Below, in pieces: positions 40,990-43,671 of a DNA stretch of 64,000 nt (its first letter is position 1; every line of letters starts with the position of its first letter). The notes below the pieces were generated by a model. It was not told where the DNA came from. It did not search any database and saw only the letters and a list, made by a program, of their open reading frames with translations. The position numbers and the translations under genes are program-made. Source of the DNA: Patescibacteria group bacterium (GTDB taxonomy: Bacteria; Patescibacteriota; Microgenomatia; Daviesbacterales; UBA10151); NCBI GenBank assembly GCA_038064895.1, contig JBBTSA010000002.1, forward strand, positions 8,942 to 72,941. Direction: 5' to 3'.

Positions 40990-43671
40990 GTGAGTAAGAT
41001 TATATTAATGAGTAAAATCCGTCTGCTGCTCATACTTATTGTTGTAGCTGTAATCTCCATTATTGCCTCAATGTATATTAAACCTATAAAGCAGCCTGGA
41101 CAACATCCAGTAACGCACGACACCGTTCTTTTTGACACAAGCAGCAAACAAGCTATTGCCCAAGGCGATAAGCTTACAGGAAAGGGCATTCCAAATGGAA
41201 AGGTCACACTCATTATCAGTCCGGGCGGGGTACAAAAAGATCTTACTGTCGATGCAAATGGTGACTGGTTTTATCAAATCGAACAACCATTGCAAGCAAA
41301 AAAGTATAGACTTAGCGTTCTTACCTATGATGTAGTAGGAACACTGGTAAATATAAAAAGTTTTCCTATAGAAATTACCTCTCCTACGAGTTCTTTATTT
41401 CTGCCAGAAGCGAAAGCACAAGAAGAAGGCCCCACGTATACACTCTTGCGTGATCACTATCCTGACTACGATGAGCATTATAAGGATTGGGAAAAGCGAA
41501 TGCGCAAGATTCAAATTTACCCGGTTTGGGACGAAGCAGTAGGAGAAACTGTCTTTTTAAATACAGAAACCTTTCTCGATAGCAATGTTTGCAGAACACA
41601 AGACTGTGCTATCGATGCTCGGCAAATGTCAGAGGTTGAATTGGCAGACGAGTTGACAAATGTATTTGTCGAATATGTCCAGGCCCTTGGAGATGTCATG
41701 CTTGAGCAGTGTTATGTACCATTTGTGGCATTGGAACAACACTTTCCGGATATAGAGCTCTTCCGGCAATATCCGAGTTTAAGCCACTACTTTGATGAAG
41801 GTCAATTACGTGGTCAGTGTATTACGCAAATAAAAAGAGATATTGAGGTAGCTGATCTCGAGAATATTATCGAAAGTGAACGGACTGCCGACTTTTTTAC
41901 GCAAAAACTCAACGAGCGGGGGCTTAATGAAGCAAGAGATCCAGTAATAAGGGCATTTATCGGACTGGATGGTTTACTGAATACGCATCTTGTCCTTAAA
42001 TTTATTGCTCAAAATGATGGATATAGGCTCTCGGATGACGATAAGGTAGATTTGGCACTTGCGCTTTTTGATTTTATTCCGTTTAACCCACTTAAATTTG
42101 CAGCAATTGTTGATGCGGATGTCGAAGAAAACCCTTTTGTTCCCAGTGCTTATGCAAAACACCAAAATCTCCAGAAGATAGTGAGAGGAAGTTATTCAGT
42201 AAATCCTCAACAAGCTGCTGCGAACGCCAGAACAGTAAGGAACACAGTGCAACGACGAGGAACTGTATCACAGTCAGTAGCCAATGCTGCCATTAACACC
42301 TTTGATAGTATACGAAGAACAATACCTCCAAGGGGAAAAGCAGGTGCTAAAAATATTGGATATCACTCTAGCAACGACGGCTTTCCAACTCAAGATTGGT
42401 ATTTTAAAGATGGAGCAAATAGAAAAGGATCGGTATTTGATGGAGTATCAACTGGCGATGGAGGACCAGCAGCCCGCTTAGCCAGCAGCACAATAGAGCA
42501 AAAAATCGCGGGGATACCTGACGTTGTATCCTATGATCAGTTAGACCAGGTAGCAAACATACTTCGTGACGCCTACAACAGTGCGCATAGACAAGTTCGA
42601 ACTCTAGGCGGTCGTCGATTGACAACTGCAGTCACAAGTGTGATAGTTGATACGGATCAAGGACCTCATGCTATTATTGCCAATGTTGGAGACGCGCGGG
42701 CCTATCTGTACAGAGAGGGTAGATTACAACAATTGAGCCGAGATGATAGGGGAGCAGCAGAGCATATTGTCACCCAAACGTTGGGCCAATCTGGCACTCC
42801 GAATGTTCACATACATCGAACGTCGCTTCAACCAGAAGATAGAATTGTTCTTATGTCAGATGGGATTTTTGACGATAATCCTCTCGATGAGCTTGAAGCG
42901 GTTCTACGTTCTACAGATGCTAATAAAGGCGATTTAGCAGAAGCACTTACAAGAATTGCTAGAAAATCAGATGATAAGACAGCAGTTGTTTTGGAAGTAT
43001 ACCCTTCAAGAACAACTGGTAATCTTCATACGGTCGTTCCGAAACGTTCTGCAGCTCCATCTCTTGCTGCAGGAGCAGCTGTCAGTGTCATTACACTTGG
43101 TTTGTTAAGCACCAGCGTTTCTTCTGTTGGTCCCACAAATCCTTCAATACCAGCTACGCCGACTGTTACTGTCCCCATCCCAAATCAAATAACTATCCAT
43201 GAGGTTAATGGGCAATTTGTGCCAGGAGGAAGAATTGTAGCTTCGACATTTCTTTCAAAAGATGGAACAGTATTAAGTCATGCGAATTATAATTTTGTAT
43301 GGGGGATAGATCAACCAAAAGATAAGACCACAACGGCAGAAATTAGTCCTCTTCCCGAAGTCAGTTGTAGCAGGGATTCTTGCACCATGAAACTCCCGCA
43401 AGACGTGCGCCCTGGCAAACATAGTCTTGTAGTGTATGTGACGCAAAGAAATGACAGTAAGGTTTTGGCTGCTAGTTCTAAGGATATTACCATAGGAAGT
43501 ACCTCACAAACTTCTGCTTGTCCTGAAACCTTCTTTCGATGTGGGGGGAAACCTGGCTATGAAACCTATGAACGACATCACAGAATCTATGTTGAACCAA
43601 TTTGTACTGGCAGTGATGTTACTTTGAGAAAAGAAGATTTAGGAGAAGATAGGACAGATTGTCCGCAATAA
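40990..43671 (+). CDS. Large membrane-anchored protein with Ig-like domain, PP2C-family Ser/Thr phosphatase domain and Cys-rich C-terminal tail
   Basis: 893 aa. N-terminal TM LLLILIVVAVISIIASMYI. PP2C motifs VFDGVSTGDGGPAARLAS, AIIANVGDARAYLYREGRLQQLSRDD, DRIVLMSDGIFDD and DDKTAVVLEV. Second hydrophobic stretch AAPSLAAGAAVSVITLGLL. C-terminal CPETFFRCGG...CTGS...DCPQ. Confidence 0.65.
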   Translation: MSKIILMSKIRLLLILIVVAVISIIASMYIKPIKQPGQHPVTHDTVLFDTSSKQAIAQGDKLTGKGIPNGKVTLIISPGGVQKDLTVDANGDWFYQIEQPLQAKKYRLSVLTYDVVGTLVNIKSFPIEITSPTSSLFLPEAKAQEEGPTYTLLRDHYPDYDEHYKDWEKRMRKIQIYPVWDEAVGETVFLNTETFLDSNVCRTQDCAIDARQMSEVELADELTNVFVEYVQALGDVMLEQCYVPFVALEQHFPDIELFRQYPSLSHYFDEGQLRGQCITQIKRDIEVADLENIIESERTADFFTQKLNERGLNEARDPVIRAFIGLDGLLNTHLVLKFIAQNDGYRLSDDDKVDLALALFDFIPFNPLKFAAIVDADVEENPFVPSAYAKHQNLQKIVRGSYSVNPQQAAANARTVRNTVQRRGTVSQSVANAAINTFDSIRRTIPPRGKAGAKNIGYHSSNDGFPTQDWYFKDGANRKGSVFDGVSTGDGGPAARLASSTIEQKIAGIPDVVSYDQLDQVANILRDAYNSAHRQVRTLGGRRLTTAVTSVIVDTDQGPHAIIANVGDARAYLYREGRLQQLSRDDRGAAEHIVTQTLGQSGTPNVHIHRTSLQPEDRIVLMSDGIFDDNPLDELEAVLRSTDANKGDLAEALTRIARKSDDKTAVVLEVYPSRTTGNLHTVVPKRSAAPSLAAGAAVSVITLGLLSTSVSSVGPTNPSIPATPTVTVPIPNQITIHEVNGQFVPGGRIVASTFLSKDGTVLSHANYNFVWGIDQPKDKTTTAEISPLPEVSCSRDSCTMKLPQDVRPGKHSLVVYVTQRNDSKVLAASSKDITIGSTSQTSACPETFFRCGGKPGYETYERHHRIYVEPICTGSDVTLRKEDLGEDRTDCPQ

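Follow-up and report, generated by a model that had tools for sequence, protein, structure and literature searches.

A PP2C-type phosphatase domain in the enzyme slot of a predicted surface scaffold protein from Patescibacteria

Introduction

On which side of the membrane, and on whose proteins, would a PP2C-type phosphatase act when it is embedded in a membrane-anchored protein that also carries an adhesin-type immunoglobulin (Ig)-like domain? This question is raised by a gene located at positions 41008 to 43671 (+) of a 64,000-nucleotide stretch of DNA from a Patescibacteria group bacterium (assembly GCA_038064895.1, contig JBBTSA010000002.1, positions 8,942 to 72,941). We refer to this whole stretch as the window, and all coordinates are given along it unless a relative is named. 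All sequences compared in this work are metagenomic.

Cultivated Patescibacteria are epibionts that live attached to other cells. The ways in which members of this group, also called the candidate phyla radiation (CPR), manipulate host cells are to our knowledge largely obscure, and we know of no host-directed enzyme effectors that have been defined for them. The locus provides a concrete candidate, as it would place an apparently active phosphatase on a surface-display scaffold whose relatives carry a protease-like domain or an effector-type kinase in the same slot. A first-pass annotation of the window had offered two alternatives: a phosphatase domain that is extracytoplasmic or delivered to a host, in an effector-like arrangement, or a cytoplasmic domain in a receptor phosphatase with two transmembrane (TM) segments. 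Our analysis favored the former over the latter. Overall, the balance tips toward a type II (N-in, C-out) anchored surface protein in which a PP2C domain has been swapped in for a zincin-like cassette and the phosphatase lies outside.

A PP2C domain at the central position of a scaffold protein

The gene encodes an 887-residue product from the ATG at 41008, which is the start chosen by public gene calls, to a stop codon at 43669-43671, and an in-frame GTG is located at 40990. Residues are numbered here along the 887-residue product; the first-pass numbering is six higher. The same product, identical letter for letter, was called on four public contigs and is named 'MAG: protein phosphatase 2C domain-containing protein [Patescibacteria group bacterium]' at NCBI, MAG standing for metagenome-assembled genome. 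The open reading frame (ORF) proposed earlier at 40990-43671 is real and its translation contains the four motifs quoted for it, although calling its product giant was an overstatement at 887 residues, given that relatives reach 2427.

The region singled out at the outset, 42300-42990, corresponds to residues 432-661 and represents the PP2C domain, whose own limits we set at 42352-43002 (+; residues ~449-665). Assignment to the PP2C family was confirmed by three Pfam models of the PPM group that scored above their curated cut-offs over residues ~451-664, PP2C_2 (PF13672, 42.6 bits vs 24, E 6e-11), PP2C (PF00481, 33.7 bits vs 20.3, E 4e-8) and SpoIIE (PF07228, 31.6 bits vs 25, E 2e-7). By these profile scores the match is well past chance. 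The closest solved relative of the domain is the cyanobacterial phosphatase tPphA (PDB 2j82, E 2.6e-10). The NCBIfam equivalog model for Stp1/IreP (NF033484) also matched with an E value of 3e-14, but with 53.2 bits against a cut-off of 230, and by this measure the domain is related to the equivalog and falls outside its membership.

A word-indexed homologue search retrieved only the query itself, the protein P0002 and one Oscillochloris PP2C. The top matches of an exhaustive search of 1.84 billion cluster representatives fell into two disjoint sets, scaffold proteins and small PP2Cs. The first set comprises about 28 large proteins (up to 2427 residues, together with a few shorter fragments) that match query residues 1-360/430, and 16 of them match residues 710-887 as well. 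The second set consists of ordinary small PP2Cs, whose match is confined to residues 450-670. No second protein combining the N-terminal module with a PP2C domain was found among the 1.84 billion representatives. E values for the match between the N-module of the query and the family (P0003-P0021 and others) went down to 1e-42, and the match was also seen by BLAST and in alignment A3. The C-module, made of a beta-sandwich (C1) with a CxxxC pair and of a Cys-rich tail, is shared with 16 relatives. The scaffold-family alignments are shallow (15 to 30 sequences).

The layout of the scaffold runs from a signal-anchor through an adhesin-type Ig domain, a Cys-paired N-domain, a helical linker, a central enzyme and a Gly/Ala-rich linker to an Ig-like beta-sandwich and a Cys-rich tail. 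The query is, by homology of its flanking modules, a cassette variant of this unannotated scaffold family, which belongs to a narrow Microgenomates/Patescibacteria lineage. An HExxH motif is found in the centre of 25/30 scaffold sequences. The query lacks HExxH and carries its PP2C domain in that slot, with residues ~430-697 being PP2C where the relatives have their central domain. The usual central domain (P0005-P0099) is about 350 residues long and follows the pattern ...TGR...VVxD...LxHExxH...YELxTD...DDFxEFAxTGD.... With its HExxH...E arrangement it looks like a gluzincin metalloprotease; it gave no sequence match in Pfam, NCBIfam or the PDB, and may represent an undescribed peptidase family.

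A further cassette is found in the relative P0007 (L004 2906-7012; L005 6172-10278), which also lacks HExxH. Its centre (~600-800) matches NleH1/NleH2, with E values of 7e-6 (PDB 4lrj) and 4e-5; the NCBIfam NleH model gave an E value of 1.4e-5, but 24.8 bits against a cut-off of 450. The G-loop, Lys, HGD...N and DYG kinase motifs of this cassette were read by eye. Synteny with the window is seen at the P0007 locus (PBP1A, with 58% identity, then the giant gene, a gene for a protein of about 80 residues, PIN/Phd and SecE-NusG-L11-L1), the window ORFs at the positions of the relatives' NusG, L11, L1, L10 and L12 being known by ORF order alone. Because of this synteny, the predicted kinase and phosphatase are regarded as alleles of one scaffold that occupy corresponding loci in related genomes. 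A kinase of effector type on a surface protein from Patescibacteria would be notable by itself.

Other relatives with the N-module carry Laminin_G, fn3, CARDB and NHL domains. A methyltransferase-like insert in P0013 (E 0.0015) stayed under the threshold, and a nucleotidyltransferase-like motif read by eye in P0038 was not used as support. Since no family member stands beside PBP1A in 80 Microgenomates GTDB loci and a family-pattern scan returned none among the GTDB species representatives, the scaffold family appears to be narrow. An embedded phosphatase or kinase cassette in a CPR surface protein was not encountered in a limited literature search. What is new here is the architecture, that is, a PP2C cassette on a modular surface scaffold, PP2Cs and modular surface proteins being already known kinds. 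Both this architecture and the exchange between kinase and phosphatase are out of the ordinary and amenable to experiment, and the PP2C variant is a singleton.

Location of the phosphatase domain

Topology was assessed from Kyte-Doolittle windows and from simple 19-residue sums on the Hessa insertion scale. The N-terminal signal-anchor helix (41017-41079, +; residues ~4-24, preceded by MSKIR), hereafter TM1, has a Kyte-Doolittle value of 3.02 and an insertion sum of -4.25, and AlphaFold2 (AF2) models it as a confident helix over residues 3-23 with a predicted local distance difference test score (pLDDT) of 87-95. The signal-anchor proposed in the first-pass annotation was borne out by these values. 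The second hydrophobic segment proposed there is present as the Gly/Ala-rich stretch LAAGAAVSVITLGLLSTSV (43063-43119, +; residues 686-704), with Lys-Arg upstream and uncharged residues downstream, but it is marginal, with a Kyte-Doolittle value of 1.84 and an insertion sum of +1.75. AF2 renders it as coil with a pLDDT of ~50, and it aligns with Gly/Ala-rich junction segments of the scaffold relatives. Two linker helices, ~316-334 and ~349-367, gave sums of +7.6 and +8.5, and by this estimate are not membrane helices.

The same picture was obtained for 27 relatives: where the N-terminus is complete there is a strong anchor with a Lys/Arg-rich N-flank, and all other segments have sums of at least +2.8. 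Many relatives have nothing hydrophobic between the central domain and the C-module. Furthermore, there are indications that both conserved modules of the query are external, since their Cys are paired, their linkers are Pro/Thr-rich, the Ig domain is of adhesin type and the same C-terminal modules occur on neighbors with signal peptides. Cys are found only paired, in the N- and C-modules, with none between residues 272 and 786. As for the neighbors, a protein of 826 residues starts with a cleavable signal peptide and ends in a tail that shares 68% identity (E 4e-20) with that of P0015, and one of 780 residues has a signal peptide and the C2 domain of the family.

As there is only one membrane anchor in the scaffold, we consider display of the PP2C domain outside the cytoplasmic membrane fairly likely. 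One N-terminal anchor with everything else outside, PP2C included, is the simplest and most economical reading, and the topology did not clearly place the PP2C domain in the cytoplasm with a canonical sensor as the rest of the protein. If the domain is external, it would be an unusual PP2C that works outside the cytoplasm of its producer, in a new family of modular surface proteins with swappable enzymes.

Several observations weigh against an active phosphatase held outside. The insertion energies are plain sums of scale values. The segment 686-704 is the most hydrophobic non-anchor segment of the whole family, and it has Lys-Arg on its PP2C side and an uncharged Pro/Thr linker beyond, which is what a cytoplasmic PP2C with an external C-module would show, as in PstP of Mycobacterium tuberculosis. 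Lys/Arg residues are present on both flanks of TM1, so the positive-inside rule leaves the orientation undecided. The closest stand-alone PP2C relatives are soluble proteins of cytoplasmic type. Within the domain itself, the classical general-acid His of DGxGGH is replaced by Gly483, and the phosphate-binding Arg of classical PP2Cs is missing, there being no Arg ahead of QD463. Finally, neither phosphoproteins to act on nor, for the relative with a kinase, ATP would be expected outside cells, and an external site would therefore need an extra step, namely access to a partner cell.

An arrangement that could accommodate cytoplasmic chemistry is a polytopic receptor phosphatase, in which TM1 would run from in to out, the Ig domain and the N-domain would form an outside sensor, a segment at ~345-368 would lead back in to a cytoplasmic PP2C, and 686-704 would lead out to an external C-module. 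Such a protein would dephosphorylate the producer's own Ser/Thr-phosphorylated proteins upon surface contact, as a version of PstP with two ectodomains. We regard this arrangement as unlikely and grade the role that goes with it the same way. The succession of PP2C, Lys-Arg, hydrophobic segment, uncharged Pro/Thr linker and Cys-rich ectodomain does resemble PstP-type proteins, but 686-704 has a sum above zero and is coil in the AF2 model. The Arg-rich stretch at ~395-445, ahead of the PP2C domain, is reminiscent of a cytoplasmic juxtamembrane region, and the arrangement would put all 10 Cys outside with none in the putative cytoplasmic part. It depends, however, on a second membrane helix, ALALFDFIPFNPLKFAAIV, which holds Asp, Asn, Lys and two Pro and has a sum of ~+8.5. 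AF2 confidence is low at residues 305-397, and burial of these helices in a globular fold is not supported. The homologous helix is nevertheless kept in relatives that have no third hydrophobic segment (P0005, P0007, P0013, P0015, P0038 and others), and if it spanned the membrane in such proteins it would send their Cys-knot tails into the cytoplasm. A receptor phosphatase is also favored by the general consideration that nearly all known bacteria keep PP2C chemistry and its substrates in the cytoplasm. Were the domain cytoplasmic, the protein would be a receptor phosphatase with two ectodomains, an architecture that would still be new and less surprising.

Predicted activity of the PP2C domain

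In a HMMER alignment, QD463, FD478-G479, GD562, SD618-G619 and D655/D656 of the query line up with the metal-site positions of tPphA, which we take to be D18, D34/G35, D119, D193 and the C-terminal D(D/N) motif; D579/D580 also count among the catalytic positions of the domain. We aligned 59 PP2C homologues taken from the exhaustive search (alignment A4). D463, D478, G479, D562, D618 and D655 are each found in 59/59 of these homologues and G619 in 58/59. Alignments A2, A4, A6 and A7 were built with MAFFT from PP2C homologues and scaffold relatives together, and their modules are out of register. Every universally conserved metal-binding residue is thus kept in the query, and the metal-coordinating aspartates whose absence would have spoken against the earlier assignment are all there. 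The 'full PP2C motif series' claimed at first holds for the metal-site motifs and not for the His of DGxGGH or the Arg of RxxxQD. Because that His is present in only 12/59 homologues, its loss appears ordinary for this subgroup of PP2Cs. The flap region is ~18 residues shorter than that of tPphA, and a short flap is common to several of the closest homologues.

Since all metal-binding residues are kept, the domain is probably an active Mn/Mg-dependent phospho-Ser/Thr phosphatase. Quite improbable in comparison is an inert pseudo-phosphatase with a binding or structural role, or a different hydrolytic activity such as de-AMPylation, for which SidD, a delivered effector with a PPM fold (PMC3656104), gives a precedent. 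The lost His and Arg and the shortened flap would suit either proposal, but intact metal Asp/Gly positions at 58-59/59 among homologues argue against an inert module, and the rarity of the His and the short flaps of close homologues deprive these losses of much of their force.

Other membrane arrangements and integrity of the gene

A protein spanning the membrane twice, through TM1 and 686-704, would have the Ig domain, the N-domain and PP2C outside and the C1 domain with the Cys-rich tail in the cytoplasm. TM1 and 686-704 are indeed the two most hydrophobic segments of the protein. Yet C1 and the tail have homologues at the C-terminus of proteins whose sole membrane element is an N-terminal anchor or a cleavable signal peptide, the Cys of the tail are paired and lie behind a Pro/Thr linker typical of external proteins, and the charges around 686-704 are opposite to the required pattern, all of which makes this topology very unlikely. 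The receptor phosphatase with two TM segments suggested in the first-pass annotation fails on geometry, as a cytoplasmic PP2C with these two segments would place the Ig domain in the cytoplasm too. A wholly cytoplasmic protein with the N-terminus alone outside was rejected in view of the tails on signal-peptide proteins, the adhesin-type Ig domain and the paired Cys.

It is scarcely credible that assembly or gene calling fused the gene of a soluble PP2C in silico with pieces of a surface-protein gene: although the architecture is a singleton at 50% clustering, the source is a metagenome-assembled genome and a soluble PP2C like P0022 adjoins SecE-NusG in a Patescibacteria-like contig, the ORF is single and unbroken with scaffold homology flanking the cassette on either side, the identical product is called on four contigs and the sequence is present in records from Logan, NCBI and ENA, the GC content at third codon positions (GC3) of the cassette is 0.278, equal to that of the C-module, and the cassette has at most 30-40% identity to any other PP2C and was thus not recently pasted.

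Recent foreign insertion or a chimera was also dropped, as there is no break in GC or GC3 across the cassette. Given a GC3 equal to that of the C-module and only 30-40% identity to other PP2Cs, the cassette would have been swapped in long ago and not by chimeric assembly. Among stand-alone proteins, the best relative of the domain is P0022, a soluble PP2C with 36% identity (L086 5001-5948). Its gene directly follows SecE-NusG and lies near a Dockerin gene, in surroundings that are the chromosomal neighborhood of scaffold genes in relatives. The position of this soluble PP2C gene beside SecE-NusG in a Patescibacteria-like contig suggests a lineage-internal origin of the PP2C cassette, with a gene of the P0022 type as a possible donor.

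Possible action at the cell surface

If the PP2C domain is external, the signal-anchor would tether the scaffold at the outer face of the membrane and the phosphatase, at the point of contact with a host or partner cell, would take phosphates off proteins of that cell. We place its action at the interface with a partner cell because cultivated Patescibacteria live attached to other cells, and regard a host-directed action of the PP2C domain as possible, if somewhat short of probable.

Entry of the cassette into the cytoplasm of the partner was considered because marginally hydrophobic segments flank the cassette and because a kinase that requires ATP would fill the slot in a relative. An ATP-dependent kinase in the slot would imply that the working site of the cassette holds ATP, and an external cassette that needs ATP would imply access to the cytoplasm of another cell or to a permeabilised interface. 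The scaffold family would then be an unrecognised contact-dependent delivery device of Patescibacteria: the Ig and Cys-knot modules of the single-anchor protein would bind the host cell, the helix pair 312-353 and the Gly/Ala-rich segment 686-704 would insert into the host membrane, and the exchangeable cassette (zincin, NleH-like kinase or PP2C) would be carried into the host cytoplasm. Membrane insertion by the flanking segments is speculation, the cassette reaching the cytoplasm of the partner is improbable in our estimate, and we think it equally doubtful that the family is a delivery device. Should delivery hold true, the PP2C allele would be the first candidate for a phospho-signalling effector in a CPR epibiont.

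Comparison with known systems

The PP2C domain resembles Stp1, PrpC and tPphA in that it scores above the Pfam cut-offs and its metal Asp/Gly residues align one-to-one with those of tPphA. Those enzymes are small, soluble and cytoplasmic, whereas the domain described here lies, as an internal cassette, within a surface scaffold anchored in the membrane; it has neither the DGxGGH His nor the N-terminal Arg, its flap is shortened, and it shares only ~30% identity with them.

PstP of M. tuberculosis is a membrane-anchored protein with a cytoplasmic PP2C first, then one strong TM segment and an extracellular C-terminal domain. As in PstP, the PP2C domain of the query is followed by a hydrophobic segment and a C-terminal domain, and the flank of that segment facing PP2C carries basic residues. 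In contrast to PstP, a strong signal-anchor and ~420 residues of adhesin-type ectodomain precede the PP2C domain, and the segment after it is marginal (+1.75) and coil in the AF2 model. By these features the query is not a PstP-type protein.

SidD of Legionella pneumophila, a PPM-fold effector with de-AMPylase activity (PMC3656104), offers a precedent for an enzyme of this fold acting on the proteins of another cell, outside the cytoplasm of its producer. The likeness considered here is that of the fold family. SidD is a soluble type IV secretion substrate that acts in eukaryotic cells, and no secretion system is linked to the query gene.

Polymorphic toxins, the contact-dependent inhibition (CDI) protein CdiA and MARTX toxins likewise combine conserved scaffold ends with one varying enzyme, here zincin-like, NleH-like kinase or PP2C. 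Unlike in polymorphic toxins and CDI systems, the variable part of the scaffold is central instead of C-terminal and the small gene downstream does not co-vary with it, and unlike in MARTX, no cysteine-protease release domain is found in the scaffold proteins. No Pfam or NCBIfam match to RHS, PAAR, LXG, TPS/FHA or RTX-repeat modules was obtained for the query or for eight of its relatives. NleH and OspG, effector kinases of type III systems, resemble the P0007 cassette, not the query; that cassette differs from them by being embedded in a surface scaffold, and no type III system is known in the bacterium that encodes it.

CPR membrane proteomes are reported, in work on Vampirococcus (PMC8080830), to be rich in very large surface proteins presumed to attach to hosts. 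The N-terminal Ig domain of the scaffold matches those of the giant Ig-repeat adhesins Bap and SiiE. Bap, SiiE and the giant proteins of Vampirococcus are repeat-based adhesins without an embedded signalling enzyme, whereas members of the scaffold family combine a single Ig domain with an N-domain peculiar to them and an enzymatic cassette.

Other modules of the protein

The Ig-like domain reported upstream of PP2C was recovered as a beta-sandwich of adhesin type (41113-41379, +; residues 36-124; AF2 pLDDT >90). Big_13 matched it just under threshold (E 2.6e-5, 25.1 bits vs 27), the scaffold-family profile matches the Ig domains of Bap and SiiE in the PDB with E values of 3e-7 and 8e-5, and Foldseek returned Ig-like matches. 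Behind it lies a family-conserved A-x-A-Q motif (A135-K-A-Q138; 41410-41421, +) resembling a signal-peptidase site, whose A137 is nearly invariant in the scaffold-family alignments. The family-wide form is hydrophobic-x-K-x-[AV]-[YHK]-A-Q, similar to an AxA|Q signal-peptidase site; in relatives a motif of this type sits after the Ig domain and recurs inside the C1 domain, and the signal peptides of the two secreted neighbors end in ...SFAYGQ and ...SIAAQQ. Judging by this likeness, the motif may be the remnant of a signal peptide that became fused, or may serve as a processing site.

The conserved N-domain of the scaffold (41437-41907, +; residues ~144-300) contains Cys195/200 and Cys235/271 and is homologous to ~28 relatives. 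Its AF2 pLDDT is mostly ~80-93, with dips to 58-65 around residues 201-220, and residues 144-300 had no Pfam match and no fold match in the PDB. The helical linker that follows (41908-42297, +; residues ~301-430) comprises moderately hydrophobic helices at 312-337 and 343-353 and a conserved Arg-rich helix at 400-417.

Beyond segment 686-704, a Pro/Thr-rich linker, recognised by sequence and coil in AF2 (43120-43182, +; residues 705-725), leads to the C1 Ig-like beta-sandwich (43183-43497, +; residues 726-830), which contains the Cys787-x4-Cys792 pair and has a pLDDT mostly >90. C1 is related to 16 relatives by BLAST (E 2e-12 to 5e-4) and in alignment A8, and Foldseek found only generic Ig-like folds for it. 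The optional C2 domain of the scaffold family is missing from the query. The Cys-rich tail noted at first pass is present at 43510-43668 (+; residues 835-887) with 4 Cys, there being 6 Cys among the last 101 residues of the protein. It is of the same type as the ...PYPQCGGTAGLEDY...GEC tail of relatives and matches the tails of P0011, P0013, P0016 and P0038 by BLAST (E ~1e-5) and in alignment A8; AF2 predicts beta structure with a pLDDT of mostly 80-92, lower at the extreme C-terminus.

Genomic neighborhood

Ordinary chromosomal DNA of a Microgenomates-group Patescibacterium makes up the window, with genes for topoisomerase I, a ClpB-like ATPase, DprA, PBP2, MreB/C, pyrimidine synthesis, PBP1A and a histidine kinase. 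The nearest PBP1A relatives are from Gottesman-, Levy-, Davies- and Amesbacteria, at up to 54% identity. No Hanks kinase was seen in the window. A role in anti-phage defence was dropped, as PADLOC gave no hit.

The gene for the 780-residue secreted protein (43675-46017, +) begins 4 nt past the stop of the PP2C gene; its product has the cleavable signal peptide, the C2 domain, a Pro/Thr-rich linker and a Cys-rich tail. It stands between the PP2C gene and a gene for an 80-residue single-TM protein (46014-46256, +), which overlaps the stop of the 780-residue gene and is a conserved partner of such genes in relatives. This unannotated protein of ~80 residues carries a ...LVQxPQIFKSKA... motif, and its gene overlaps the stop of each large secreted or scaffold gene. 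Copies are located at 46014-46256 and 50660-50923 in the window and at L002 9533-9790 and L004 7009-7248 in relatives; besides the copy behind the 780-residue gene, the window has one behind the 826-residue gene, and homologues in relatives come after the scaffold genes that encode P0011 and P0007. The small proteins of relatives are 28-40% identical to the window copy, with the TM segment and two Cys conserved (alignment A5). A function as cognate immunity gene was rejected, the gene being conserved whatever the cassette, and its product may be an assembly or anchoring partner.

A second operon, 47689-48186 followed by 48183-50663, resembles a split scaffold gene. Its first product, of 165 residues, has an anchor like that of the family (SFLKPK; E 2e-4), and its second, the 826-residue protein, combines a signal peptide, an HELGH zincin motif, a C2 domain of the family type and the P0015-like tail. 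Toxin-antitoxin genes (AbiEii/DUF6922, PhdYeFM-type and PIN) are interspersed among these surface-protein operons at 46328-47211 (-) and ~50.9-51.4 kb (-), and the same is seen in relatives.

Upstream of the PP2C gene, a 47-nt direct repeat (40529-40575 and 40916-40962, with 85% identity between the copies) represents a duplication of the PBP1A 3' end and encloses ~340 bp (40576-40915) with two ORFs for hydrophobic peptides on the minus strand, 40580-40675 (31 aa) and 40686-40877 (63 aa). In the relative L005 the gap between PBP1A and the giant gene holds a Phd-type toxin-antitoxin set, and for this reason the gap looks like an insertion hot spot. Finally, many MAG records titled 'uncultured Gammaproteobacteria' or 'Pseudomonadales' (binchicken TPA assemblies; L006, L007, L016, L018, L024 and others) encode a PBP1A closest to those of Microgenomates-group Patescibacteria, and the titles of these records are probably wrong.

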